Assembly: GCA_947366895.1 (NCBI GenBank)
Contig: CANBBP010000005.1
Span: forward strand, 1 to 64,000
Reading direction: 5' to 3'
Length of the DNA: 64,000 nucleotides
From: an uncultured Clostridia bacterium
GTDB taxonomy: Bacteria; Bacillota; Clostridia; Christensenellales; UBA1242
Position numbers and translations under genes: made by a program. Of this stretch, positions 1 to 29,876 are shown one piece after another. A model generated the notes under the pieces. That model had not been told where the DNA came from. It ran no database searches and was given only the letters and a program-made list of their open reading frames with translations. The first letter of the stretch is position 1, and every line of letters begins with the position of its first letter.

Positions 1-481
<481 letters not shown>

Positions 482-625
482 TAAAGAGAAGTGAAGTCGA
501 CGAAACCGATTGAAATATATCGGCAGGTACACAAGTTAGAAAGCAAACTAAATTAAAAAACTCTTGAATAAAAACAAGTAAAAATATAACCCAAAAACCT
601 TTACTATTAAAATGGAATTTAAAAA

Positions 626-4430: not shown

Positions 4431-5300
4431 AAAATCGAGTTTTTTATATATAAAACGATATAAACATATAAAACCTAAATCTTTTTTTATAATAAATCGA
4501 TATATTCATAATATATCTAATATAAACCTATAAAAAACGATATTTTATAAATTAATCTAAATTTATTTTAAATAAAACTCGATAATTTCATAAATAAAAT
4601 AAACTAATCTAAAAAAAATCGATATTTTCTAACAAAAACTTAAGTAATTCATTTAAAAAACTGATATATACATATAAAAACAAAATTAAACTAAAAAAAA
4701 TCGATATATTAATACAAAACTCGATATTTTCAATACTGCTTTTAAATATAAAAATCGATTTAATCTAAAATAATCTGATTTAATCTAAATAAACTCGATA
4801 TTTTCTAATAATACTTTAATTCCTTTTTTTAAAAAACGATATTTTTATAAATAAAATAATTCAATCTTATAAAAAACAATATATAAATAAAAAAAACGAT
4901 ATAATAATATATATATTTACAATAAAAAGCGATTTAATATAATAAAAGCTAAATAAATCTAACATAAACTAAAATAATCGTAAAAAACCTGATATATTCT
5001 AATACAACACGATATAATCTAATAAAACCTGTTAAAACATGTTTCAATTCTAAATAAATAGATATAATATAATAAAACTCGTTAAAACCTGATTTAATTA
5101 AAAATATATCGATATAAACTAATAAATCACGAAGTAATAATATAAAATCTTAATTATTCCAATAAAACCCGATATTTTTTAAATAAAGACTGAGTATTTC
5201 ATTTTAAAAAACTGATATATTCATAAAAAAACTGATATATTCTAAATAAAATCGATATATTAATATAAAATCCGATTTTTTACATTATTGGGTTTTTTCA
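4431..5300. repeat. ~0.9-kb AT-rich array of about 35-40 degenerate ~20-bp tandem repeats, consensus roughly AAAAYYGATATATTCTAATA
   Basis: Many spaced copies of aaaa(t/c)cgatat(a)tt, aaaactgatatattc, aaaacctgatatattctaat and similar at ~15-25-bp intervals. No ORF occupies the region. It lies between the HAD gene start and the rplJ promoter. Confidence 0.8.
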
Positions 5301-9776: not shown

Positions 9777-10559
9777 ATGAATAAAAAAGAGGACAGGCAA
9801 AGAAAGATGCTAGAAATTGTTAAAAAATGTATAGACAATAATTATAATCTTGACAAGACCTTTGATATGATTTCTAGTAAATTGAAACTTAAAAAAGGTA
9901 GTGCAAAAAATTATTATTATACTTTTATTAAGTCTATTAAAAATGACCCTAACAAATATCAAAAATTGGATATAGAAAAATTATCAAAAAATAATTTTAA
10001 TAGATTTGAAGAAACAGAAATTAATGAACTTGTAACTATAGTTGATAATAATTTAATGAAAGGTATCAGTGTAAGGCAAACATGTTTAGAACTTGCAAAT
10101 AATGATGCAAAGGTAATGTTAAGATTACAAAACAAATATAGAAATTGTAAGCATAATGGGAGCAAAAAAAATATGGGAAACAAAGAAAATATTATTAATA
10201 TAGATTTTGCAAAACAAAAGTTAAATAAAAAAATTAGTGATAGTGATATTAATGCCTTATTTATGGGACTTGTAAAAATAGTTAAAAAGAGTGCTTTAGA
10301 TAGTGCTAATCAAGAATTAAAAGTTGAATGTAATGAGGCAAATGAAAATTTTAGACAAACTTTAATAGATTTAAATAAAAAAGAAGAAGAACTTAAAATA
10401 ATGCAAGAAGTAAATAGAGAACTTAATTTAAAAGTAGAGGCACAAAAAGAACAAATTTGTTCGTTGTTGCAAAAACTTTCAAGTAGGAGGCTTAAAAGCT
10501 TAGAAAAGAAAAGCGATTATAAAACTATGAAATTAAAAAAGTTTGATTTAAGTAAATGA
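9777..10559 (+). CDS. Hypothetical coiled-coil protein, 260 aa
   Basis: K/E/N-rich with heptad-like segments in the C-terminal half. RBS ggagattttATG. Confidence 0.5.
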   Translation: MNKKEDRQRKMLEIVKKCIDNNYNLDKTFDMISSKLKLKKGSAKNYYYTFIKSIKNDPNKYQKLDIEKLSKNNFNRFEETEINELVTIVDNNLMKGISVRQTCLELANNDAKVMLRLQNKYRNCKHNGSKKNMGNKENIINIDFAKQKLNKKISDSDINALFMGLVKIVKKSALDSANQELKVECNEANENFRQTLIDLNKKEEELKIMQEVNRELNLKVEAQKEQICSLLQKLSSRRLKSLEKKSDYKTMKLKKFDLSK

Positions 10560-10651
10560 TTTATTAAATAATTAAATATATAATTGCTAGTAAGGATTTA
10601 AAAAAAATAAGGTTATAGTCACTAACATTTGAAACTAGCGGAATAATTAAA

Positions 10652-10681
10652 GAGAACTCTATAGTTTTAGAGTTCTTTTTC
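10652..10681. terminator. Hairpin with T-run just inside the left end of the island
   Basis: Stem gaactcta / tagagttc, loop tagttt, then ttttt. Confidence 0.45.
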
Positions 10682-10713
10682 TTGTGGCTTTATGCCGCGA
10701 AAGGTTCTTTACT

Positions 10714-10837
10714 CAGGGCTTAAGAATGGAACATAATAGACAAAAGGCAAAAAGAAAAAAGCGAAAGTATCTTCGCTTTAATAGCATAATGCTTGTTTCT
10801 TTGTCTTATTTGCAGAGATTATCATTCTAAGCCCTGT
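10714..10837. repeat. ~124-nt long imperfect palindrome (nested inverted repeats) downstream of the recombinase gene
   Basis: Outer arms cagggcttaagaatg / cattctaagccctg (15 bp, 1 indel). Inner arms aatagacaaa / tttgtcttatt. Central hairpin agcgaa-agtatc-ttcgct. Confidence 0.6.
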
Positions 10838-10871
10838 GTCAAGAACATCGTGGAATAAATTAGCCACAAGT

Positions 10872-12374
10872 CTAAATAACCACATAAATATCATAAGTAT
10901 TGGTTTTAGTTTTAATAATGCCACCTTTGAAGTGTCTTTCGGTTGTGTAAGTTTCTGTAAATACTTTTTGAGTTATCGGCTCATTACTTGCCATTTGGTT
11001 TATTGCGTAATTTATACCTATTTCAATTTTGTTCTCATAAACTTTCACAAACTTTATGAATAATTCAAACGCCATATTTGGACATTGTTTCATAGTGTAT
11101 TTGAAGAAGTTTTGTATATCTTCTTTTGTTAGTTCATATCTCTCTTTAGATTGCTCTATAATAACTTTCTCTTGCAAGTCTTTCTTTGCGTTTTCAAGTT
11201 CTTCTAATCTTGCTTTTGTTGTTTCGGTAAATATGCCTTTTTCAATAGCTGACATAATATTTGCAATGGATGTATTTACTCGTTGTAAATCGGTTTTTAA
11301 TGCGTTTAATGGTGTATTGCTACCAATCCTTTTCTTATGCACTTCAAATATCTTTTCAGTCAATATTTCAAGGTTTTTAGGTGTATTGAATTGTTCTATT
11401 AAGAATTTGTCTACAACACCCTCAATAAAGTCCTTATGCAATCTTTTATTATGACAGTTATCTTTCTTTGTTCCTATGCAATTATAGTATCTCAAATGTT
11501 CGCCATTAGAAGATATTGCAGATACTGGATACATTTTCTTATTGCAATAACCACAATATATTTTGTCTTTTAGTTTAAATATTTCATGATTATCTTTTCT
11601 GCAACCATATCTATTTTTATCCATTCTTTCTTTAACCTTTGTGAATAGTTCTTTTGTTATTATTTGTGGGTAGATATTGTCATATCGTTTGCCATTTATC
11701 TCATATTCGCCAGTGTATAGTTTTCTTTGTAGAAAATGTCTTATTGTTTGTGGTATAAACTTTTGACCTTTATTTGTAATGCTTTCATTCTCTAAATCTT
11801 TAGATATTTGCAATATTGTTTTGCCACTTGCATAATCTTTGTAAATTCTATTTAATATTTCACTTTCTTCTTGGTTTACTTTTAACATTTTGTTTTCTTT
11901 AATGTAGCCATAAGGAACACTGCCAATACAATGTCCTTTCATTCGTGATTCGTGTAGTCCACGACTTACTTTTTGTGCTAATTCTTCACTAAAGTATTGG
12001 TTCATTCCTTCTAGCAAACTTTCAAGTAAAACTCCTTCTGGTGTTTCTGGTATATTTTCCATTGCAGATAAAAGTTTAATTCCATTATCTTTTAAGTGTT
12101 TTCTATGAATTGCTGACTCGTATTTGTTTCTTGCAAATCTGTCTAGTTTGTAAACTAATACATAGTCCCATTTCTTGTTATTGCTATCTTTTAGCATTCT
12201 TTGAAAAGATTCTCTTTCATCTGTTGTTCCACTGATTGCTCGGTCAATGTATGAATCAACGATTATTATATCGTTTCTTTTCGCATAGTCTTGGCAGACA
12301 TGAACTTGTCCCTCTATGCTTTGTTCTGTTTGGTTTGTGCTAGAGTATCTAGCGTAGATTACTGCTGTTTTCAT
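10872..12374 (-). CDS. Large serine recombinase (resolvase catalytic domain + recombinase domain + zinc-ribbon region), 500 aa
   Basis: N-terminal MKTAVIYARYSSTNQ... carrying the catalytic Ser/Arg resolvase signature. Its length and the Cys-rich segment (CGYCNKKM ... YYNC ... C.N.K) fit large serine recombinases. Confidence 0.85.
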   Translation of the reverse strand: MKTAVIYARYSSTNQTEQSIEGQVHVCQDYAKRNDIIIVDSYIDRAISGTTDERESFQRMLKDSNNKKWDYVLVYKLDRFARNKYESAIHRKHLKDNGIKLLSAMENIPETPEGVLLESLLEGMNQYFSEELAQKVSRGLHESRMKGHCIGSVPYGYIKENKMLKVNQEESEILNRIYKDYASGKTILQISKDLENESITNKGQKFIPQTIRHFLQRKLYTGEYEINGKRYDNIYPQIITKELFTKVKERMDKNRYGCRKDNHEIFKLKDKIYCGYCNKKMYPVSAISSNGEHLRYYNCIGTKKDNCHNKRLHKDFIEGVVDKFLIEQFNTPKNLEILTEKIFEVHKKRIGSNTPLNALKTDLQRVNTSIANIMSAIEKGIFTETTKARLEELENAKKDLQEKVIIEQSKERYELTKEDIQNFFKYTMKQCPNMAFELFIKFVKVYENKIEIGINYAINQMASNEPITQKVFTETYTTERHFKGGIIKTKTNTYDIYVVI

Positions 12375-12554
12375 TTTTTCTAAACTCCTTTATATTTTTT
12401 ATTTGTCTTTCGACGGAGCGAAACTAAACGAAAGCGGATTCTTGTTTTAAACTTTTAAATATATATATTTTTTAGTCAAGGTTTGCGAAAAGCAATACAC
12501 TTTAACCTTGACTAAAAAGAGTTTTCGTTTACGCTCCACAAGGCGAAAGATAAA

Positions 12555-13442
12555 TTAGTTGGTTGTTCTCAACTGAGATATTGTTTCTTTACTTACTTTT
12601 CCCACCAAGACACCTTCATCCCAACAATTAAAGTCATCAAATAAAAGTAGTTTTCTATCTTCAATTCCAATAGTGCAAACAATATCACTATCCATAATGT
12701 CTGATATGAAATAGGTCGGTAGTCCTTTTGAGTAAACAATTTTTTCTTCGGTCTTTGCTAAATATTTCATTATATAGGCGATAGATTGTGCCAAAGAATT
12801 TGGGGCTATTGGCTCAAAGTCGTTCCTTCCAAATCTATCTAAAAAATATTGGTTTTGATATGTCGTTTGCATTTGATGTGTTTTTGTGCTGAAATCTCGT
12901 TTTTCTATAAACTCTAAATTGTTGTTTGGTATATACACAAGTGTGTGAAAGTGTAGCCTTTTATTTATTGGACTTCGTTCCCAAACACCTGCATATTTCC
13001 AACTTTTGCGATTAGATAAATGTTTTAGACAATTAGACAACTTCGTTTTAAATGACTCTTCGTTGTGCTTTTTGTCATCATAAGTAAATGTGCAAAAATA
13101 TGACCATTCTTGTAAGTAAACTTTTCTTACAAATCTTTTTCTTCTTTCAATTAAATTTCTTAACTTTCTGTCTAAATTAACTTTTACAAACTCTCTTAAT
13201 CTTTCTTCGTTCTTTATATATGGCTTTAAACTTTCAATAATTTCGATGTTTCTTTCTCGTGGCTTTTTATCTAAATTTTCTCTATATGTCTTTTCAAAAA
13301 GTTTGTTTAAATTTGTTGTCGATGTTTCTAAATTTTCTTTCTTAATAGTGTTAGTTTTCCGTTTTTTGTGTGGTTGTAATTCTTTGGGTATTGCAATGTA
13401 ATGGCTACCATCGAAATACACTTTTGTTTCTCCAAATGGCAT
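12555..13442 (-). CDS. Rolling-circle replication initiator of the HUH superfamily with a phiX174-type double-tyrosine motif
   Basis: Motif 1 FTFTYDD, motif 2 HFHTLVY (HUH), and motif 3 AYIMKYLAK, which is Y-x-x-K-Y-x-x-K as in phiX gpA (YVAKYVNK). Confidence 0.7.
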   Translation of the reverse strand: MPFGETKVYFDGSHYIAIPKELQPHKKRKTNTIKKENLETSTTNLNKLFEKTYRENLDKKPRERNIEIIESLKPYIKNEERLREFVKVNLDRKLRNLIERRKRFVRKVYLQEWSYFCTFTYDDKKHNEESFKTKLSNCLKHLSNRKSWKYAGVWERSPINKRLHFHTLVYIPNNNLEFIEKRDFSTKTHQMQTTYQNQYFLDRFGRNDFEPIAPNSLAQSIAYIMKYLAKTEEKIVYSKGLPTYFISDIMDSDIVCTIGIEDRKLLLFDDFNCWDEGVLVGKVSKETISQLRTTN

Positions 13443-13443
13443 A

Positions 13444-13599
13444 TTACACCTGCCTTTTGGATGGTTTCTCTTTTATTTTGCGGTGTTGCATAATGTGATC
13501 TAGTAGTGCAAGATAAAACGATTCATCTAAGCCACCAACATCAATTAAATTTTGAGAGAAATCCTTATTGTTTGATTTGTTTTTAAAAATGTTTTGCAT
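13444..13599 (-). CDS. Small 51-aa ORF immediately upstream of, and overlapping, the rep start
   Basis: RBS aaaggagg 9 nt before the ATG. Its stop overlaps the rep start region (translational coupling). No known motif. Confidence 0.3.
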   Translation of the reverse strand: MQNIFKNKSNNKDFSQNLIDVGGLDESFYLALLDHIMQHRKIKEKPSKRQV

Positions 13600-14107
13600 T
13601 TTTCATTGCCTCCTTTTAGTTTTTTGGCAATTAAAAAAGGCATAGAAAGAAAATACTTCTTCTACGCCTTTGAAATGCAACCACTGTTTCTTAAACGAAA
13701 ATCTCGGCTTGCCATTTTTGCGTGTCTTTTTCAATTACTTTTGTAAATGTATCACAAACAATTTCAAAATAAAATGATATTACTTGCCCCTTAGTAGTCA
13801 TCTTATTGATTTTGATTGCTAACACTTGACACTATGTTAGCAAGTTGTTCGTTAAAATACAACGAACTAACTTAAACAAAACTTCTAATAAATCCGTAGT
13901 AAACCCTAACTAAATTTAAACTGACTTAAAGTAAAACCCAAATTTTTTAAGTGTTTGTGAAATATTTACGAGTAGAATATCTCACAAAAATCTCGGAATT
14001 ACAAGATGGTTTACTGGTAGTTTACAAGTAATAAACAGGTATTTTGCGGACAAAATGCGAACTTTTGCAATGCATTTACACTTAATAGCCACAAAAACAT
14101 TAAAAAG

Positions 14108-14136
14108 TTGACGGTCTAACTGAAACTTTTTAATAT
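14108..14136 (+). promoter_or_regulatory. Candidate sigma-A promoter (TTGACG, 17-bp spacer, TAATAT) facing the hairpin cluster and R-M operon, bracketed by a 14-bp direct repeat
   Basis: -35 at 14108-14113 and -10 at 14131-14136. Direct repeats aatagccac(a/g)aaaa at 14084-14097 and 14146-14159. Confidence 0.4.
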
Positions 14137-14236
14137 CTTCTATATAATAGCCACGAAAAAGCCATTTTGAGCGGGTGTTTTTACAAAAAAATTTATAAAC
14201 TTAAAAATTTATGTTAAAAAGCAAAACAAAAGAGAA

Positions 14237-14398
14237 AGTGGGCGAAGAAAAAAGTGGAGGTGCGATAGCCTGCGGCACTCCACTTTTTGCCCACTTTCGT
14301 TTTGCGAAAGGTTTGTTTATATTTAGTTGTTTTAGTTTAGGCGTGTGCTTGTCTGCTGGAGCGAAGCGACAGCACTTGTATCAAGACAAGCACACGCC
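14237..14398. other. Cluster of three GC-rich stem-loops inside an AT-rich island; candidate rolling-circle origin (dso or sso)
   Basis: Nested hairpin with outer stem aagtgggc/gcccactt and inner stem aaaaagtggag/ctccacttttt (14249-14259 / 14278-14288). Hairpin ctttcg-ttttg-cgaaag (14294-14310). 15-bp perfect inverted repeat ggcgtgtgcttgtct / agacaagcacacgcc (14340-14354 / 14384-14398). Confidence 0.45.
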
Positions 14399-14514
14399 TG
14401 AGTGCCATTTTATTTAAAATTTTATAAAATAAGTCAACGATTGCTTGCAAAAATCATATCATTTATGTTATATTAAAAGTAAAGAAAGTAAAGATTTTTT
14501 AAGGAGCAAAAAAT

Positions 14515-14724
14515 ATGATAAAGCAAGCGAAGTTATCAAATAAATGCCAAATAACAGTTCCGAAAGAGGTTAGGAAATTGTTGGAGATTGATAAGGGAGA
14601 TGATGTCGTTTTTTATATTGAAGATAATGAGGTAAAACTAACCAGTATTAAAAACATTAATCTAAAACTAAAGAACCCAAAAAAGAAAACAACAATGAAA
14701 AAAGGAGAAAATAACAATGGATAA
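14515..14724 (+). CDS. AbrB/MazE/SpoVT-family small DNA-binding protein, 69 aa; first gene of the R-M operon
   Basis: Swapped-hairpin signature QITVPKEVRKLLEIDKGDDVVFYIEDNEVKL. RBS aaggagc. Overlaps the hsdM start by 8 nt. Confidence 0.7.
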   Translation: MIKQAKLSNKCQITVPKEVRKLLEIDKGDDVVFYIEDNEVKLTSIKNINLKLKNPKKKTTMKKGENNNG

Positions 14725-16444
14725 ACAAAAGATTGACAACAAGGCAAGTTTGATATGGAGCATCGCAGATAAACTTCAAGGAGATTATAAGCCTCATGAA
14801 TATGGAGATGTTATTCTTCCATTTACTGTGCTTAAAAGGTTTGATAGCGTCCTTGCCGACACTAAAGATAAGGTTATTAAAGTAGCATCTGAATATCCAG
14901 TTATTACTCCACCTGTTGACAAACTTCTTAAAAGTGTAGCAAAACAACAAATATACAATATAAGCAAATATAATTTTAAAAATTTGCTTGACGACCCTGA
15001 TAATATAAAAATCAACTTTAAAAAATATATTGCTGGCTTTTCTGAAGAAGTAAAAGATATCTTAAGTAAAGAGCATGGGTTTGAGTTTGATAGACAAATT
15101 GAAAAACTAGACAATGCGGGTTTGTTATATTTGATAATTGCCGAATTTAATACCGAAAAGGCAGATTTACACCCTAACAAAGTTAGCGATATTGAAATGG
15201 GGTATATTTTTGAGGAAGTAATTAGAAAATTTAGTGAAACATATCAGGCTGATGCTGGAGAATTCTACACCCCAAGAGAAATTATTGATTTAATGGTTAA
15301 TTTACTTTTAAATAATGAAGAATTAAGTGAAAACAATAAGGTAATACAAATATATGACGGAGCGTGTGGCACTGGTGGGATGTTGTCTATCGCCTACGAA
15401 CGAATCAAGGAACTAAATAGTACAAATGCCGTTTTTACAAATGGGCAAGAAATTAACCCTCAAACTTATGCTATTTGTAAAAGTGATATGCTACTTAAAG
15501 GTGGTAAAAATTCAACAATTAAATTTGGTAGTACCCTTTCGAACGATCAATTTTCTGAAGAACAATTTGATTATATTATTATGAATCCACCTTTTGGTAG
15601 AGAATGGAAAAAAGACAAGGAAGAAGTTGAAAAGGAATATAAGCGTGGTTTTGCTGGTAGATTTGGTGCAGGATTGCCTGCAGTTAGTGATAGTCAAATG
15701 TTATTTTTGCAAAATGCTATTTCAAAAATGAAACCAAGTGGAAGTAGAGTTGCAATAATACATAATGGTTCTGCTTTATTTGCTGGTGATGCAGAAAGTG
15801 GACCAAGTGAAATTAGAAGATATATAATTGAAAATGACTTGCTTGAAGCCATTATTCAATTACCAAACAACATCTTTTATAATACTGGAATAGCTACATA
15901 TATTTGGCTATTGTCAAATAAAAAATCAAAAGAAAGAGTTGGTAAAATTCAACTTATAAATGCAAATGAAATGTTTGTAAAGCGACGCAAGGTTTTAGGC
16001 GAAAAGCGAAATGACATTTCAAAGACGCAAATTGAGGATATAACCAAACTTTATGATGATTTTAAAGAAGCCGATAACAGCAAAATATTAGACAACGAAG
16101 ATTTTAAGTATTTTAAAGTTGTAGTTGAAACGCCGATTAAAGATGAAAAAAGCAACATTATATTAGATAAAAAAGGCAAAAAACAACCTGATATAAATTT
16201 AAGAGATTTTGAGATTATACCAGCGAAAGAAAATATTGAAGCATTTATGCAAAAAAATGTTTATCCTTTCAACCCTGATGCTTATATAGATAAAGACAAA
16301 ACTAAAGTTGGTTATGAAATTCCTTTTACAAGGTTATTTTATAAATTTATTCCACCTACTCCATCAAAGGCTATCTTTGCTGAAATTAAAGAGCTTGAAA
16401 AACAAGAAACCACTTTAATGAAGGAGTTATTTAGCAATGATTAA
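14717..16444 (+). CDS. hsdM: Type I restriction-modification system, methyltransferase subunit
   Basis: N6-adenine methyltransferase motif IV NPPFG (IIMNPPFGREW) and a SAM-binding region DGACGTGGML; 575 aa. Confidence 0.9.
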   Translation: MDKQKIDNKASLIWSIADKLQGDYKPHEYGDVILPFTVLKRFDSVLADTKDKVIKVASEYPVITPPVDKLLKSVAKQQIYNISKYNFKNLLDDPDNIKINFKKYIAGFSEEVKDILSKEHGFEFDRQIEKLDNAGLLYLIIAEFNTEKADLHPNKVSDIEMGYIFEEVIRKFSETYQADAGEFYTPREIIDLMVNLLLNNEELSENNKVIQIYDGACGTGGMLSIAYERIKELNSTNAVFTNGQEINPQTYAICKSDMLLKGGKNSTIKFGSTLSNDQFSEEQFDYIIMNPPFGREWKKDKEEVEKEYKRGFAGRFGAGLPAVSDSQMLFLQNAISKMKPSGSRVAIIHNGSALFAGDAESGPSEIRRYIIENDLLEAIIQLPNNIFYNTGIATYIWLLSNKKSKERVGKIQLINANEMFVKRRKVLGEKRNDISKTQIEDITKLYDDFKEADNSKILDNEDFKYFKVVVETPIKDEKSNIILDKKGKKQPDINLRDFEIIPAKENIEAFMQKNVYPFNPDAYIDKDKTKVGYEIPFTRLFYKFIPPTPSKAIFAEIKELEKQETTLMKELFSND

Positions 16445-17687
16445 GATGAAAGAAAGTGGTGTTGAATGGATTGGACAAATTCCTGAAGACTGGAAATTAA
16501 AAAGATTGAAAATAGTTTTACAGGAAAGAAATGAAAATAATAATCCTGTTAAAACAGATTATATATTGTCATTGACAAATGATAAAGGAGTTATTCCATA
16601 CTCTGAAAAAGGCGATATTGGTAATAAATCTAAAGATGATATTACTGGGTATAAGTTAGCTTATCCAAATGATATTGTGCTAAACAGCATGAATGTTGTT
16701 ATTGGTTCGGTCGGTATTTCCAACTATTTTGGAGCTGTAAGTCCAGTTTATTATATGTTAAGACCAAGAAATAAAAATGACGATGTAAGGTATTATAATT
16801 ATATTTTTCAGACAAAAGAATTTCAAAATAAGTTAAAGGGTTATGGGAATGGAATTCTAGAAATAAGAATGAGAATTCAGATGTTAAAATTAAACACTGT
16901 AGAGTTACCTGTTCCATCAAGTGAAGAGCAAGTAAAAATCGCTGATTTTCTTGATAAAAAATGTTCGCAAATTAATGCACTTATAAAAATTCAAGAAAAA
17001 GAAATTGAAAAGATTAAACAATATAAACAAGCCGTTATAAGCGAAGTTGTAACAAAAGGCTTAGACCGTAGTGTGAAAATGAAAGATAGTGGCGTTGAAT
17101 GGATAGGCGAAGTCCCTGTAGATTGGGAAGTAAAAAAATTAAAATTTTGTTATAAAAACAGAAATACTAAGTATACATTAGGAGAATTCCCATATATTGC
17201 ATTGGAAAATATAGAATCTTTTAGTGGGAAATATGTTTACACTGAGACAAATTCAAATTATTTACTTGAAGGTTCAATTATTGCGACTAAGGGAGATGTG
17301 ATATTTGGTAAGCTTAGACCGTATTTAACAAAAGCATTTCTAATTGAATCTGATTCTTGTGTATCTACAGAATTTGCAGTATTTTATTCAAATGAGAATA
17401 ATTCAGAATTTTTAAAATATTTATTTTTAAGCTATAGATTTATAGACATAATAAACTCTTCTACATATGGGACAAAGATGCCAAGAGCGAATATTGATTT
17501 TATAAATAATCTAGAGATAGCTTTACCAAATTTAAAAACCCAGCAAGAAATATCGGAGTATCTTGAAAAAAAATCAAATGAAATAGATAACTTAATACAA
17601 ATAAAGAAATTTAAAATTCAAAAACTTCAAGATTATCAAAAATCTTTAATATACGAATATGTAACAGGTAAAAAGAGGTGTATTTAA
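16437..17687 (+). CDS. hsdS: Type I restriction-modification system, specificity subunit
   Basis: Two target-recognition halves, each preceded by the conserved repeat MK(E/D)SGVEWIG(Q/E).P.DW. Overlaps hsdM by 8 nt and hsdR by 10 nt. Confidence 0.85.
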   Translation: MIKMKESGVEWIGQIPEDWKLKRLKIVLQERNENNNPVKTDYILSLTNDKGVIPYSEKGDIGNKSKDDITGYKLAYPNDIVLNSMNVVIGSVGISNYFGAVSPVYYMLRPRNKNDDVRYYNYIFQTKEFQNKLKGYGNGILEIRMRIQMLKLNTVELPVPSSEEQVKIADFLDKKCSQINALIKIQEKEIEKIKQYKQAVISEVVTKGLDRSVKMKDSGVEWIGEVPVDWEVKKLKFCYKNRNTKYTLGEFPYIALENIESFSGKYVYTETNSNYLLEGSIIATKGDVIFGKLRPYLTKAFLIESDSCVSTEFAVFYSNENNSEFLKYLFLSYRFIDIINSSTYGTKMPRANIDFINNLEIALPNLKTQQEISEYLEKKSNEIDNLIQIKKFKIQKLQDYQKSLIYEYVTGKKRCI

Positions 17688-20647
17688 TGGAAACAAAAGA
17701 AAAGAATTATGAAGCGTTCATTGAAAGATATTTAACCACTACAGGTGGCTATATAAAAGATAATGGTTCTGGTTATGACAATAAAATTGGAATAATTACA
17801 CCTGATTTATTTTCTTTTATTAAAACCACTCAACCTAAAGAATGGAAAAGGGTTCAGGATAGTCAAGGCTCTCAAGCAGAGATATATTTTATTGATAGAC
17901 TGAAGAAAAATATTGATGAATATGGATTTTTACATGTTTTACGCAACGGAATTAAACTGAATGGAGTTACAATAAAACTTATTTTCTTCAAGCCAGAGAC
18001 TGAAATCAATCCAGATAGTATCAAATTATATAATCAAAACATTTGCAAGCTTGTTCGTCAATTACACTATTCATATCTAAATAATAATAGTCTTGATACC
18101 GTGCTTTTTGTAAATGGTTTTCCAATTGCAACAATTGAATTGAAAAACGAGTTTACTGGACAAACTTGTCAAGATGCTATACGACAATACAAATACGATA
18201 GGGACCCAAATGAAGTTATATTTCAATTTAATAAAAGGTCTTTAGTGCATTTCGCAGTTGATTTGCAAGAAGTATATATGACAACAAAATTGAATAGTAC
18301 ATCAACAAAATTTTTGCCATTTAACCAAGGCTCAAATGGTGCAGGTAAAGTTGGTGGTAAGGGTAATCCAATAAATGAAAATGGTTTTGCAACTGCTTAT
18401 TTGTGGGAGAATGTTTTAAATAAAGATAGTCTTTTTGATATATTAAATAAATATATACAATTGGAAGTTAAGAAAAACAAAAAAACTGGCGAAATTAAAA
18501 AGACTTTGATTTTCCCTAGATATCATCAGTTGGATGTTGTAAGAAAGTTAATAGCAGATGCAAAAGCAAATGGTGCTGGAAAAAATTATTTAATTCAACA
18601 TAGTGCAGGAAGTGGAAAAAGTAATAGTATTGCATGGCTTGCTTATCGTCTTGCAACTTTACATGACAGTAATGATAATACAATTTTTGATAGCGTAGTG
18701 GTTATTACAGACAGAAGAGTTCTTGACCAACAACTTCAAGATAATATCTATCAGTTTGAGCATACTCTAGGCTTTATAGAAAAAATTGACAAGAACAAAA
18801 CCAGCCAAGATTTATTGAAAGCAATAAATGCGGGCAAAAAAATAATAATTACAACATTACAAAAATTTCCTATTATTTATAAAGACATTGAATCTCAACA
18901 TAAGCATTTTGCAGTTATAATAGATGAGGCTCATTCATCTCAGACTGGTAATAGTGCAAAAAAACTTAAAGCTGGTTTAGGAGATTTGGAAGAAGCAATA
19001 AAAATTGAGAATGAACTGGAACAAAAAACCTCTGAAGATGAAGATAAATTGCTTTTTGAACTTGCAAGTCAGGGAAAACAAAAAAATCTATCATTCTTTG
19101 CTTTTACTGCAACTCCAAAAGCCAAAACTCTTCAAATATTTGGAACAAAAACTGAAGAAGGTAAATTTGTTCCCTTCCATATATATTCAATGCAACAGGC
19201 AATTGAAGAAGGCTTTATTTTAGATGTTTTGCAAAATTATATGACTTATAGCACATTTTATAAGTTGGTTAAAAAGACAAATGAAGACCCTGAATTTGAT
19301 GCTAGTAAAGGAATTAAAGAACTTGTAAGGTTTGAGACTTTGCATCCTACCAACATATCTCAAAAAACAGCAATTATTATAGAGCAATTTTTAAACACAA
19401 CCGCCAACAAAATAAACGGAAAAGCAAAAGCTATGGTTGTTACTCCATCGAGATTGCATGCGGTAAAATATGTAAATGCTTTTAAAGAATATATTAAAAA
19501 GATATCTATGGAAGACAAAATTAAGGTGTTAGTTGCCTTTTCTGGCGAAGTTTTTGACCCTGACACAAAAGAGACTTATACGGAGCCAGGGATAAATAAG
19601 ATAAGCGAAAGCCAATTGCCTGAAGCTTTTGAAGAAGAATACAATGTATTAATAGTTGCTGAAAAATATCAAACAGGATTTGACCAACCATTGCTCCATA
19701 CGATGTTTGTTGATAAAAAACTTTCTGGAATAAAAGCTGTTCAAACTCTTTCACGACTTAATAGAATCTGTGAAGGTAAAACTGATACTTTCGTTTTGGA
19801 CTTTGTAAATAAAGCTGAAGATATACAAAATTCGTTCCAAGACTTTTACCAAGGCACTGTGTTGACAGAAGGTTTTGATGTTAATAATGTTTATGATATT
19901 TATGGCAGATTGGAGGCATATAAACTGGCTGATATAAATGACATAAATGGATTCGCTGAATTATATTATTCAAATTCTGAAGATATGGGTAAATTAAGCT
20001 CTTATTTGTATAGGGCAAAAGAAAAATATATTGTTCTTGAAAAGAATGATAAACACGAATTTAAATCTATTATGCAAGCATTTTTACGAAATTATAATTT
20101 CGTTACTCAAGTAACTCGTATGAATGATAAAGAATTGCAATCGGCATACATTTATTATAAATATCTAAATCAGTTTCTTCCAAAAGACAACGCCAAATCA
20201 GTAGATGTTAAAGATTTAGTCGAGTTAGAGTTCTATAAGCTTGAAAAGAAGTTTGAAGGAAGCATAACTCTTACAAAAGAACAAGCCGAAATTGAGCCTC
20301 CTACTGGAAATATCGGCAAAAAAGGTGAAACGGCAAAGAGTAAATTGAGCGAAATTATCAATAAAATTAATCAAAAGTATCAGACAAAGTTCACGAATAT
20401 GGATAAAGTCTTTGAGCAAATCGAAAACGATTATTTAAATGATGATAGAATGAAAGCATTTGCTAAAAACAACGAAGAAAAAGCATTTAAAAAAGTTTAT
20501 GATATCGAGTTTGAAAACAAAGCGATACAAAGATATGAGCAAAATAGCGAATTATTTAAGATTTTATTTACTGACGAAGAATTTATGAATGATATTAAAT
20601 CAGCTTTATTTAAAGCAATTTATAGTAAATTAAAACAATCTCAATAA
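17678..20647 (+). CDS. hsdR: Type I restriction enzyme, restriction (helicase-nuclease) subunit
   Basis: 989 aa. Helicase motif I AGSGKSNS and motif II DEAH (AVIIDEAHSSQTG). Size and operon context fit a type I R subunit. Confidence 0.85.
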   Translation: MYLMETKEKNYEAFIERYLTTTGGYIKDNGSGYDNKIGIITPDLFSFIKTTQPKEWKRVQDSQGSQAEIYFIDRLKKNIDEYGFLHVLRNGIKLNGVTIKLIFFKPETEINPDSIKLYNQNICKLVRQLHYSYLNNNSLDTVLFVNGFPIATIELKNEFTGQTCQDAIRQYKYDRDPNEVIFQFNKRSLVHFAVDLQEVYMTTKLNSTSTKFLPFNQGSNGAGKVGGKGNPINENGFATAYLWENVLNKDSLFDILNKYIQLEVKKNKKTGEIKKTLIFPRYHQLDVVRKLIADAKANGAGKNYLIQHSAGSGKSNSIAWLAYRLATLHDSNDNTIFDSVVVITDRRVLDQQLQDNIYQFEHTLGFIEKIDKNKTSQDLLKAINAGKKIIITTLQKFPIIYKDIESQHKHFAVIIDEAHSSQTGNSAKKLKAGLGDLEEAIKIENELEQKTSEDEDKLLFELASQGKQKNLSFFAFTATPKAKTLQIFGTKTEEGKFVPFHIYSMQQAIEEGFILDVLQNYMTYSTFYKLVKKTNEDPEFDASKGIKELVRFETLHPTNISQKTAIIIEQFLNTTANKINGKAKAMVVTPSRLHAVKYVNAFKEYIKKISMEDKIKVLVAFSGEVFDPDTKETYTEPGINKISESQLPEAFEEEYNVLIVAEKYQTGFDQPLLHTMFVDKKLSGIKAVQTLSRLNRICEGKTDTFVLDFVNKAEDIQNSFQDFYQGTVLTEGFDVNNVYDIYGRLEAYKLADINDINGFAELYYSNSEDMGKLSSYLYRAKEKYIVLEKNDKHEFKSIMQAFLRNYNFVTQVTRMNDKELQSAYIYYKYLNQFLPKDNAKSVDVKDLVELEFYKLEKKFEGSITLTKEQAEIEPPTGNIGKKGETAKSKLSEIINKINQKYQTKFTNMDKVFEQIENDYLNDDRMKAFAKNNEEKAFKKVYDIEFENKAIQRYEQNSELFKILFTDEEFMNDIKSALFKAIYSKLKQSQ

Positions 20648-20660
20648 ATCTTTTAATAAA

Positions 20661-20692
20661 AAAGACATACTAAATAAATAGTATGTCTTTTT
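20661..20692 (+). terminator. Rho-independent terminator after hsdR
   Basis: Stem gacatact / agtatgtc, loop aaataaat, then ttttt. Confidence 0.75.
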
Positions 20693-20805
20693 CGCTAGTT
20701 TCAAAGTTTATAACCTATATAACTTTATTTTTTTTGTTAAGTTTTATTTAATAAGTAAAGTTAAAAATAATTGAAAAATGCAAGAAGTTATGATATAGTT
20801 TTTAT

Positions 20806-27695: not shown

Positions 27696-29876
27696 ATGTA
27701 TCTACTAGGTGCTATTGAAGATGTTATAGTTTCTATAAGAGATTTTTTTCAACTTGTTTTTGTTGAAATTGCAGACCTAGCATTTTGGCCTTTTATTATT
27801 TTAGGTCTTATGCTTGCCTCCATTGCTGTTATGGGTGTTTTGATAGGTTTGTCTTATGAAAATAAAATTTTAAGAAGTGTAAACAAACTTAATTCTTACT
27901 TTTTATCAAAACCTTTTATTACTGAAGAAAATCTTGTTGAGTTTAATCTAAAAATGAAAAAAGTTCCTAAGGTTCTTCGTAATAACTGGCAAATATATAT
28001 GTTAAATCGTGAAGATTCTCCTACAACCTATATCAATACAAGTACTTGTATTGATAAACCATTAAGAACAAGTTCTATTGAAAAAAATATGAGTAACTTT
28101 ACTATCTTTACTATTTTCTTAGCTCTTGTTGCTTTATTCATTGGTTTACAATATGCACAATTAGATAGTACAACAAATGCAAATGTTGGTTCAATTTTAT
28201 TCTATGCAGGTCTTGTTCCATTAGGAGTGGCTTTCTTATATGTAATAGCAATATTCATTGCAAAAGCTGTAAAAGATGATATTTATTCTTCCTTATATGA
28301 TAATTTCCCTTTGTATGAAAGAAATTTAACCAAAGCTGTTTCAACCTTGCCTTCTTATGTAGATTATGAAATATTATTTACTAGAAAAGAAATTAAAGAA
28401 GGTATTCCTATTTTACAACAATATCTTGAAAAAAGAGCTCTTGTTGAACAACAAGAACTTGAAAGAGCAAGACAAGATTCTATGGCTACCGAAGAATATG
28501 ACTTTGCAGAGTTAGGAATAGATGGCTCACTTGTTTTAGAAAGAGCAATGAAGGAAAGTGAAACGTTTATAAGAACTCGTAACAGACTTCAAGAAGAGTG
28601 TGGTCAAATAGAGGCAGAAAAGGAAAATTATAAAAAGACCTTTGAAAATAATGAAAAGGATTTCCAAAGAAAACTTCAAGCTAGCAGAGAAAACTTAGAA
28701 AGTTTGAAAGCACAACAGGAAGCTTCTACAAACCGTATTGAAAGTAACTATATTAGAAAACAACAAAGCGATGAAATTAAAAAACAAGAACAACTTGAAA
28801 AAGACAATGAAGAAGCAAATGCAAAATTCAATGAAGAGCAAATTAATCTACAACAAGAAATAGATAAGAGAAAACAAGAAATTGAAGAGAAAAAAGCTTT
28901 CGTTGAACAAGCTATGTTACTTGAATTTAAACATTATGCAAATACTCTTTATAAAGCACTTACTCAAAAAGCAGCAGAAATAGGTAACCAAAAACTTATA
29001 ACCCTTGCACAAGAAAATAACGATTTAAAATCTATATTATCAGATATGCAAGGAGCTGAACAATTTTATGACCCAACAGCTGGTATGATTCAAAATGAAG
29101 AAATAACTGCAGAAAAATTATATGATATGACTAATGGCGAACTTAATCAACTTGAAGAAAATAGAAATTTAAGTCACCAAATGAATCAAGAAGAAGCAAA
29201 CAATCAAAATGTTCAAAATGAAAATAATCAAATAATTAATAACGTTAATGATAATCAAGATAGTAATGTAAATGGTGATGCTTCAAATAATGTGGGTGTA
29301 GATTCATCAAATATAGGTGGAGATGGGGGACAAATTCCTAATGCTCAAAGTGAAGAAGATTTGTTAGCACTTCAAAAACAAATTGAGGAAGAAAGTAATA
29401 AACTTCAACAGCAAAAGCAAGAACTAGAAAATGATATTAATTCTATTAATACTCAAATGAATAATCCTCAACCTCAACAGCCGGAAGTTCAAAGTGGCAA
29501 TGTAGAAACAGCACCTCAACCACAAACTATTCAACCTGTTGAACAACCACAAGTTGTACAACCAGTTGAACAACAACCACAAACTCAAGTTGTACAAGAA
29601 GTTCCAAATGTTCAACCTCAAGTACAACCACAACAAGAACAAGTTGTACAACCTCAAGTTGAACCTAATTATGAAAATGAATTAGAAAAATTAGAAGAAA
29701 CAACTGCCGCAACAACAAGAGGTAGAAGAACATCAAATGCTTCAAGCAATCCTAGAACAACTGCTAGAGGGGCAAAAACAAAGAGGGCAGGAAGAAACAC
29801 TGCAAGGTCAAATAGTGAAATAGATGCCTTGAATGCAGAAATGCAAAAACTTTTAGATTCCACAAAAAATAGTTAA
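27696..29876 (+). CDS. Membrane-anchored coiled-coil protein with a Q/N/P-rich low-complexity region, 726 aa
   Basis: 2-3 hydrophobic transmembrane segments in the first 200 aa, a long E/K/Q-rich coiled coil, then QPxVQP-type repeats and an RG/T-rich C-terminus. Confidence 0.55.
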   Translation: MYLLGAIEDVIVSIRDFFQLVFVEIADLAFWPFIILGLMLASIAVMGVLIGLSYENKILRSVNKLNSYFLSKPFITEENLVEFNLKMKKVPKVLRNNWQIYMLNREDSPTTYINTSTCIDKPLRTSSIEKNMSNFTIFTIFLALVALFIGLQYAQLDSTTNANVGSILFYAGLVPLGVAFLYVIAIFIAKAVKDDIYSSLYDNFPLYERNLTKAVSTLPSYVDYEILFTRKEIKEGIPILQQYLEKRALVEQQELERARQDSMATEEYDFAELGIDGSLVLERAMKESETFIRTRNRLQEECGQIEAEKENYKKTFENNEKDFQRKLQASRENLESLKAQQEASTNRIESNYIRKQQSDEIKKQEQLEKDNEEANAKFNEEQINLQQEIDKRKQEIEEKKAFVEQAMLLEFKHYANTLYKALTQKAAEIGNQKLITLAQENNDLKSILSDMQGAEQFYDPTAGMIQNEEITAEKLYDMTNGELNQLEENRNLSHQMNQEEANNQNVQNENNQIINNVNDNQDSNVNGDASNNVGVDSSNIGGDGGQIPNAQSEEDLLALQKQIEEESNKLQQQKQELENDINSINTQMNNPQPQQPEVQSGNVETAPQPQTIQPVEQPQVVQPVEQQPQTQVVQEVPNVQPQVQPQQEQVVQPQVEPNYENELEKLEETTAATTRGRRTSNASSNPRTTARGAKTKRAGRNTARSNSEIDALNAEMQKLLDSTKNS

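Follow-up and report, generated by a model that had tools for sequence, protein, structure and literature searches.

Restriction by type I restriction-modification (R-M) systems is usually described as controlled after translation, through subunit assembly and ClpXP-dependent restriction alleviation. To our knowledge, dedicated controllers are found almost only among the helix-turn-helix (HTH) C proteins of type II systems, with one HTH example in a type I system, HsdC of Mycoplasma. Classical C proteins are of the Xre-type HTH class, belong mostly to type II systems and are usually co-transcribed with the restriction gene, the expression of which they delay; they activate at low and repress at high concentration, and their C-boxes are inverted repeats located upstream of or within the promoter (PMC12707154). 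HsdC of Mycoplasma gallisepticum S6 is encoded by the first gene of a type I operon of the order C-M-S-R, and its homologs in Mollicutes accompany type I as well as type II systems (PMC5282649; PMC12707154). It binds, as demonstrated by electrophoretic mobility-shift assay, to (GTGTTAN5)2 direct repeats that lie over the -10 box and the start site of a single strong extended -10 promoter; its apparent effect is repression of the entire operon, with no activation of the restriction gene, and the system was acquired horizontally (PMC5282649). The 64,000-nucleotide (nt) stretch of DNA analysed here (contig CANBBP010000005.1 of an uncultured Clostridia bacterium, positions 1 to 64,000; hereafter the window) carries a type I operon of this gene order, in which the first gene encodes a 69-amino-acid (aa) protein of the AbrB/MazE type. 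Sequence comparison indicates that this protein is probably a dedicated transcriptional autorepressor, or ‘controller’, of the R-M operon that it heads. The features concerned are, in order of position:

14445 to 14450, forward strand: -35-like hexamer TTGCAA, a consensus match from a promoter scan, with an 18-nt spacer to TATATT and TG before this second hexamer
14466 to 14474, forward strand: extended -10 box TGTTATATT (TGnTATAnT), the columns of which are invariant in 10 aligned upstream regions with diverging flanks
14479 to 14493, forward strand: candidate operator GTAAAG-AAA-GTAAAG, a tandem direct repeat with a period of 9 nt, starting 4 nt past the -10 box
14501 to 14506, forward strand: Shine-Dalgarno sequence AAGGAG of the small gene, read from the sequence and ending 8 nt before the ATG at 14515
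14515 to 14724, forward strand: gene for the 69-aa AbrB/MazE-fold protein, with an ATG start, domain matches and purifying selection
14702 to 14707, forward strand: Shine-Dalgarno sequence AAGGAG of hsdM, inside codons K63-G64-E65 of the small gene and ending 9 nt before the ATG at 14717
14717 to 16444, forward strand: hsdM, type I methyltransferase subunit of 575 aa (HsdM_N and N6_Mtase; PADLOC MTase_I, E 3.5e-236)
16437 to 17687, forward strand: hsdS, specificity subunit of 416 aa (Methylase_S, two stretches)
17678 to 20647, forward strand: hsdR, restriction subunit of 989 aa (HSDR_N, ResIII, SWI2_SNF2 and T1R_D3-like in Pfam; TIGR00348 hsdR)

Like HsdC, the window protein is the product of a small first gene in a C-hsdM-hsdS-hsdR operon, with a direct repeat that begins 4 nt past an extended -10 box. 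Unlike HsdC, which by its description is a homolog of the HTH C proteins, it has the AbrB/MazE swapped-hairpin fold, and its candidate operator repeat has a period of 9 (GTAAAG-N3-GTAAAG) and not of 11 as in the (GTGTTAN5)2 element of HsdC. Because HsdC is a C-protein homolog, the resemblance is an analogy and not a homology, and what is new with respect to HsdC is the AbrB fold of the controller. A first-pass annotation of this DNA had proposed an AbrB-type R-M controller, which the linkage to R-M genes and the conserved candidate operator favour; a controller gene at the head of a type I operon has a precedent in HsdC (PMC5282649). No description of an AbrB- or MazE-type R-M controller was found in the literature searched, the coverage of which falls short of all journals. 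With C.PvuII, C.AhdI and C.Esp1396I the window gene shares the condition of a small dedicated gene inside an R-M cluster, which has its own promoter and travels with the system; in about 50 loci, with three types of HsdM and a IIG/BcgI-like enzyme as partners, it heads the operon. It differs from the C proteins in its AbrB fold, in a direct repeat located at +1, in the gene order C-M-S-R and in that only repression would be expected. In place of a C-box, an inverted repeat of the GACT...AGTC type, the conserved element is the direct repeat downstream of the -10 box.

The protein itself is well defined and, as the first-pass annotation maintained, is a genuine member of the AbrB/MazE group: the open reading frame (ORF) starts with ATG and exceeds the curated thresholds of both Pfam (PF04014 MazE_antitoxin, 40.7 bits with a cutoff of 24.7, E 2.2e-10) and NCBIfam (TIGR01439 AbrB family, 37.1 bits with a cutoff of 28.3, E 1.9e-9). 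Its Pfam and NCBIfam matches comprise AbrB/MazE-type families only and no HTH family, and PADLOC holds no model for it. The DNA-binding domain occupies residues 1 to about 46 and is followed by a basic, low-confidence tail (residues 47-69). In an AlphaFold2 model, which is of the monomer, residues 1-46 form a beta-alpha-beta-beta arrangement with a predicted local distance difference test score of 75-88, and the tail is poorly modelled. The top Foldseek matches of this model are AbrB-N (1yfb), SpoVT (2w1t), Sso7c4 (5itm) and MazE (1mvf), with probabilities of 0.94-1.0 and with E-values that the small size of the domain makes weak (at least 8e-3); searched against the PDB, a family profile finds the AbrB-family chains 5itj/2l66 (Sso7c4) and the SpoVT N-domain 2ro5, at E of about 1e-5. 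The best sequence and fold matches among solved structures are thus the N-domains of Bacillus subtilis AbrB and SpoVT and Sulfolobus Sso7c4; the first two are global or sporulation regulators with C-terminal multimerisation domains, Sso7c4 is chromatin-like, and none of them is tied to R-M. Domains of the AbrB type (AbrB, MazE, SpoVT) dimerise to form a single DNA-binding unit, and from its family membership the 69-aa protein would be expected to form a homodimer with an interleaved beta-barrel and to bind DNA. The very short length of the gene and the AT-rich DNA around it might suggest that the ORF arose by chance or is decaying, and that its AbrB-like motif serves no function. Such an explanation can scarcely be credited in the face of family matches above curated thresholds, of a ratio of nonsynonymous to synonymous substitution rates of about 0.08-0.09 (for pairs with an unsaturated, computable synonymous rate), which denotes purifying selection, and of hundreds of homolog clusters in which length and position are kept.

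The arrangement of the operon is compact. The stop codon of the small gene (14722-14724) sits 8 nt inside hsdM, which starts with the ATG at 14717 (ATGGATAA), in agreement with the 8-nt overlap first reported, and this overlap suggests translational coupling of the two genes. All of hsdM, hsdS and hsdR are present and intact, with successive genes overlapping (the start of hsdR lies over the end of hsdS), an organization from which co-transcription of the small gene with hsdM-hsdS-hsdR is to be expected. Residues K62 and G64 of the small protein are nearly invariant across the family, and their conservation may result from a dual-coding constraint imposed by the overlapping hsdM ribosome-binding site as much as from protein function. 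A cryptic toxin gene ahead of hsdM, named in the first-pass annotation as a finding that would speak against its proposal, was looked for and discarded as a candidate: the small gene and hsdM have no ORF between them, and two ORFs on the minus strand, 14613-14747 and 14657-14950, share their DNA with the coding genes.

The linkage of the small gene to methyltransferases is constant among the short-form homologs sampled (66-77 aa, 35-100% identity). They have an N6_Mtase gene directly downstream, adjoining or overlapping; about 50 loci, drawn from 10 or more different neighbourhoods, showed this succession, and none with available downstream sequence departed from it. In a first homolog search, which gave 26 clusters of 71-100% identity, every context that was read starts an R-M operon, in one of two forms. 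The first form consists of the small gene and hsdM(575 aa)-hsdS-hsdR, located beside a serine recombinase, a recombinase and Rep, or divergent Fic/GmrSD genes; the second consists of the small gene, a 610-aa N6_Mtase and an S subunit, without hsdR. The 610-aa protein is fitted better by PADLOC models of type IIG fused endonuclease-methyltransferases (best E 2e-52) than by those of type I, which suggests a BcgI-like enzyme with a putative nuclease domain. A genome scan added relatives of 37-40% identity in metagenome-assembled genomes of Bacilli, upstream of a 696-aa HsdM followed by S and R. When a 73-aa protein from among these relatives was used as the query, at least 120 clusters were obtained, and a two-clade profile matched 3157 proteins at E <= 1e-5, a count that includes long-form antitoxin relatives. 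The contexts sampled in the 73-aa clade (P0126, P0132, P0100, P0086, P0158 and P0195, and the metagenome loci L173, L175-L178 and L187) show HsdM as the partner, with a length of 575, about 698 or 818 aa, followed by S and R; some of them also have a GmrSD gene that overlaps. Overall, therefore, the methyltransferase partners are three HsdM types and the BcgI-like (IIG) fused enzyme with its S subunit. Plasmid and phage collections contained almost no relatives (one distant match on a Lysinibacillus plasmid and four weak phage matches).

Two expectations of the first-pass annotation can be judged from these contexts. One was that homologs might normally be followed by a MazF/PemK toxin; short forms precede methyltransferases, with no toxin gene downstream of any of those sampled, and the longer relatives (about 75-107 aa) are followed, where the downstream gene could be identified, by a PIN-domain toxin in the VapBC arrangement. 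The other, given as a ground for abandoning the proposal, was that homologs might prove to be stand-alone AbrB regulators, and every short form sampled heads an R-M methyltransferase operon. The family is large and common in gut Clostridia and Bacilli, and it places an antitoxin-type AbrB domain in a controller position. Since the public annotation of P0195 reads only ‘AbrB/MazE/SpoVT family DNA-binding domain-containing protein’, genes labelled in this manner could pass for orphan antitoxins.

Fic-domain genes and type IV GmrSD genes recur beside AbrB-headed R-M operons in unrelated neighbourhoods. Both are divergent in L012 and L013, a Fic gene lies upstream in L159, L162 and L166, and in L250, L251 and L256 GmrSD overlaps the end of hsdR; in some loci GmrSD appears to be part of the AbrB-headed operon, and would then be under the same promoter. 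Many loci of the 73-aa clade also have a conserved divergent ORF for an acidic protein of 107-108 aa, without a Pfam match, about 128 nt upstream of the small gene, as for example at 4546-4872 (-) in L159, 1225-1551 (-) in L250, 5546-5872 (-) in L253 and 236-559 (-) in L256. This ORF is not present in the window.

The small proteins of the window and of L019 are 85% identical, and their methyltransferases are 24% identical over 288 residues; those of L159 and L187 are 89% identical, with methyltransferases at 31%. On the operon side, DNA homology between the window and L007 is confined to 14374-14711, that is, to the promoter, the operator and the small gene, and ends at the cargo. From the association of near-identical small proteins with divergent methyltransferases it follows that promoter, operator and predicted repressor move as one module. 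Such modularity would favour a self-contained regulatory module, acting in cis and in trans, over a specific partnership with an HsdM protein. It thereby bears on the possibility that the small protein is an antitoxin-like inhibitor that binds HsdM, HsdR or their complex, with the R-M system in the role of the toxin. Membership in the MazE/VapB/PrlF antitoxin superfamily, a position upstream of and overlapping the next gene, as is typical of antitoxins, and the fact that the nearest outgroup relatives are true antitoxins with PIN toxins would all agree with such an inhibitor. It is nevertheless improbable: the C-terminal toxin-binding extension is missing (69 aa as against about 75-107 aa in the PIN-paired relatives), residues 47-69 are basic, poorly modelled and in part under constraint from the ribosome-binding site of hsdM, and near-identical small proteins (85-89%) occur with methyltransferases of 24-31% identity and with the fused BcgI-like enzyme, which hardly suits a specific protein partner. 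The curated NCBIfam antitoxin equivalogs are likewise far below their cutoffs (PrlF NF007429, 26.9 bits against 125; MazE NF050106, 22.3 bits against 65; doc_partner TIGR02609, 23.7 bits against 55.9). Nothing points to neutralisation of the restriction enzyme at the protein level.

A candidate binding site of the predicted autorepressor lies in its own promoter. Upstream regions with different neighbours have in common only TTGCA, TGnTATAnT and then the block AGTAA(A/G)GAAAGTAA(A/G)GA. Most of the aligned relatives retain the TTGCA motif, 18 of the 19 loci examined have a TGnTATA(A/C/T)T box, and GTAARG-AAA-GTAARG starts 3-7 nt after the extended -10 box (18/19 loci), so placed in the window (14479-14493) that it would be expected to span the transcription start. 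In the aligned upstream regions the repeat, too, does not vary, although the DNA on either side diverges. The operator 15-mer has a single exact copy in the window. Exactly one copy of the repeat, at the same position, was present in all 23 R-M-linked loci and in none of 15 VapB-like loci, and it was found again in the loci checked later. Throughout the 73-aa clade both half-sites read GTAAGG and the DNA-binding loop reads LTSKGQITIPK, as against GTAAAG and LSNKCQITVPK in the 69-aa clade. The conserved element is thus a tandem direct repeat at the expected transcription start and not the palindromic operator upstream of 14515 that had first been envisaged; the aligned promoters showed no conserved inverted repeat, and the inverted repeats considered as candidates proved to be AT-rich noise or two GC-rich hairpins, which travel with a Rep module, are incomplete or absent in L001 and L012 and are not conserved with the small gene. 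A near-copy of the 15-mer with one mismatch (GTAAAGATAGTAAAG), the only one in the window, lies at 28097-28111 (-) inside the ORF 27696-29876; as a second operator it was set aside and taken as chance, given its location within a long ORF.

A similar use of direct repeats is known from MraZ, a swapped-hairpin protein able to read repeats that stand in front of its own operon with a spacing of about one helical turn. MraZ, which is also dealt with in the HsdC study (PMC5282649), differs from the window protein in having two fused AbrB-like domains and in forming large oligomers.

The half-site itself is shared with antitoxin relatives. AbrB-type VapB antitoxins of VapBC (PIN) systems have an N-terminal domain homologous to that of the window protein, with the motif (T/S)xK(G/C)QIT(I/V)PK; their gene, too, comes first and overlaps the next, and a GTA(A/G)GG half-site is repeated in their own promoter. 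For 83 distinct VapB-like genes, a good number of which come from GC-rich genomes, the 110 nt upstream show a 59-fold enrichment of GTAAGG relative to the rest of the loci, and a 31-fold enrichment of the reverse complement, CCTTAC, a sequence that could not act as a ribosome-binding site. In 43 of these 83 loci GTA(A/G)GG half-sites form an inverted pair, often between or over the promoter hexamers, as with the CCTTAC palindromes of L185 and L246; the half-sites are thus mostly inverted in VapB-like relatives and in tandem direct order in the family of the window. The window protein further differs from VapB in that it has no C-terminal toxin-binding extension and no PIN toxin, with an R-M methyltransferase downstream instead. 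In L249 (MT836742.1, a ‘Bacteriophage sp.’ scaffold), an 85-aa long-form AbrB relative (1120-1438) is preceded by TGATATAAT and, after the -10 box, by the identical tandem repeat GTAAGGAAAGTAAGG, with no methyltransferase or obvious toxin downstream of this gene; the protein may be an intermediate between antitoxin and R-M controller. As the half-site occurs with VapB-like relatives and in L249, the hexamer tracks the protein family and not the R-M genes, and this co-occurrence is the pattern that would be expected of the protein's own binding site.

These observations point to descent of the R-M-linked family from VapB-like antitoxins, by which the DNA-binding domain and the half-site were kept and the toxin-binding tail was lost. 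Of the antitoxin remnant proposed in the first-pass annotation, the ancestry accordingly stands, with longer VapB-like relatives and a shared GTAAGG, while a recent remnant does not agree with a large and conserved family devoid of the toxin-binding tail.

A subgroup of about 90 aa (NAKVM(S/A)KGQITIPKD...), encoded on human-gut contigs at L193-L200, L204-L209, L216, L228, L233, L237, L240-L242 and L247, has a palindrome of a variant half-site, AGTAGGGA-N-TCCCTACT, right after the -10 box and, where the downstream gene is identified, a PIN_3 toxin. Within the operator family described here, this palindrome has the appearance of a natural specificity variant.

In bacterial promoters a binding site between -10 and about +20 implies repression, and the location of the direct repeat at the expected transcription start therefore argues for a repressor acting on the entire operon, as opposed to an activator of the restriction gene in the manner of C proteins. 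According to the mechanism proposed here, the AbrB-type swapped-hairpin domain would dimerise, and two dimers would occupy the two GTAAAG half-sites, which are 9 bp apart, on roughly the same face of the helix. Binding from about +1 to +15, just past the extended -10 box, would block RNA polymerase. On entry of the island that carries the operon into a naive cell no repressor would be present and the strong promoter would fire, in such a way that the small protein, HsdM, HsdS and HsdR would be made together from their overlapping genes in an initial burst; as the repressor builds up, the whole operon would be clamped at a low level independent of copy number. The order of methylation before restriction would be left to the intrinsic post-translational properties of type I enzymes (PMC12707154). 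Promoter, operator and predicted repressor constitute a portable head, which has become attached to unrelated R-M cargoes.

Several points weigh against this autorepressor. A repressor that acts on the entire operon does not by itself delay restriction relative to methylation, and the term ‘controller’ in its classical sense would be applicable by analogy only. The promoter is a consensus match in AT-rich DNA, where 49 such matches were found and 40 were expected. The concerted change of half-site and DNA-binding loop between the two clades is suggestive only, because it represents one evolutionary event. An 18-mer version of the operator matches at least 120 IMG/VR contigs, none of the matches adjoining an AbrB-like ORF; as the 18-mer is a simple sequence, the evidence for the operator consists in position and co-occurrence and not in rarity of the motif. 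Finally, the repeat is purine-rich and resembles a Shine-Dalgarno sequence, and its second copy in the 73-aa clade is the ribosome-binding site, which leaves room for a role at the level of RNA or translation.

Such a role, in which the repeat would be a leader feature of the RNA (a ribosome standby site, a translational enhancer or a site of translational autoregulation) and not a DNA operator, deserves separate consideration. The second copy in the 73-aa clade ends 9-11 nt before the ATG, in keeping with its use by the ribosome, and SymE provides an example of an AbrB fold able to act on RNA (PMC1891008). SymE is a 113-aa AbrB-fold toxin encoded near the hsd region of E. coli, under the control of LexA and an antisense RNA (PMC1891008); it resembles the window protein in its fold, in its derivation from antitoxins and in its presence in R-M and mobile islands. 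Unlike SymE, which is a toxin and not the product of the first hsd gene, the window protein heads its hsd operon, and the Pfam family SymE_toxin (PF08845) is not among its Pfam matches at E <= 0.01. In the 69-aa clade, moreover, a separate AAGGAG follows the repeat, and because the repeat starts 3-6 nt past the -10 box the transcript would lack its first copy in part or altogether. The 31-fold enrichment of CCTTAC upstream of relatives, where it forms promoter palindromes and can never act as a Shine-Dalgarno sequence, also speaks for DNA, and an RNA-level explanation of the repeat is very improbable.

Autorepression could, on the other hand, be combined with a different physiological role, in which the R-M operon (or R-M and GmrSD together) is an inducible defence or addiction ‘toxin’ under a short-lived, antitoxin-derived repressor, in a toxin-antitoxin logic exerted through transcription. 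Were synthesis of the repressor to be halted, for instance by phage-induced shut-off, by stress or by loss of the island, the strong promoter would be derepressed and a burst of restriction would follow. This labile repressor is a minor possibility at present; if it were true, the portable head would be a general plug-in by which different restriction systems are made inducible.

The locus offers a concrete evolutionary link between the autoregulation of toxin-antitoxin systems and the control of R-M systems. It yields a precise and easily testable operator prediction, with the same head fitted to unrelated restriction enzymes, and it could matter for the engineering and transformation of gut Firmicutes that carry such systems.

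The operon is located on a mobile island of about 10 kb, the main features of which are:

10596 to 20745, no strand assigned: mobile island carrying the operon, delimited by blastn against L003 (93-95% identity over that span, different neighbour genes)
10872 to 12374, reverse strand: large serine recombinase (Pfam Resolvase/Recombinase/Zn_ribbon_recom)
12555 to 13442, reverse strand: rolling-circle Rep-like gene (Pfam REP_ORF2-G2P)

Recurrence of this segment in another context, beside the large serine recombinase, bears out the mobile island of the first-pass annotation. Related contigs carry the label uncultured Clostridia, and Spo0A is encoded near one of them. The association with an island raises the question of whether the small protein regulates genes of the island or of the host (for excision, replication or exclusion of related elements), with the R-M system as mere cargo. 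A large serine recombinase is found near many copies, the head of promoter, operator and gene is joined to different cargoes, and HsdC binds additional host promoters (PMC5282649). A regulator of this kind is unlikely all the same, in that no neighbour other than the methyltransferase operon is constant: L016, L022/L023, L159, L250 and L256 have no recombinase nearby, a tyrosine integrase or Fic/GmrSD genes take its place at other loci, and there is one copy of the repeat per locus, at the gene's own promoter.

Within the island, the two target-recognition regions of hsdS (about 16444-16951 and about 17147-17567) appear as blastn gaps against L001, L003 and L018: DNA similarity to these islands, 90-95% identical elsewhere, could not be detected there, and the conserved central and terminal parts of the gene align. 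Shuffling of specificity domains between island copies produces such a pattern.

The window and L003 share a module at 12555-14375, formed by the rolling-circle Rep-like gene (REP_ORF2-G2P), small ORFs and hairpins, which L001 and L018, homologous islands in other respects, precisely lack; a replication module is therefore found in some forms of the serine-recombinase island and not in others. The hairpins, at 14221-14305 and 14339-14399, are two in number, long and GC-rich, and stand amid the AT-rich intergenic DNA, the second with perfect 16-nt arms followed by a T-rich stretch. Folded as single-stranded DNA, the segment 14215-14410 has an energy of -50.5 kcal/mol (z = -7.9), and Rfam gave nothing significant in 13400-14800, hairpins included. 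Both hairpins are kept in L003, which carries the Rep module; of the second, L001 and L007 keep no more than the right arm, and L016 has a related hairpin. The hairpins may function as a rolling-circle origin used by the adjacent Rep, as a site for the recombinase or as a terminator that insulates the R-M promoter. Just outside the left boundary of the island, a 260-aa lysine-rich ORF without a Pfam match is located at 9777-10559 (+).

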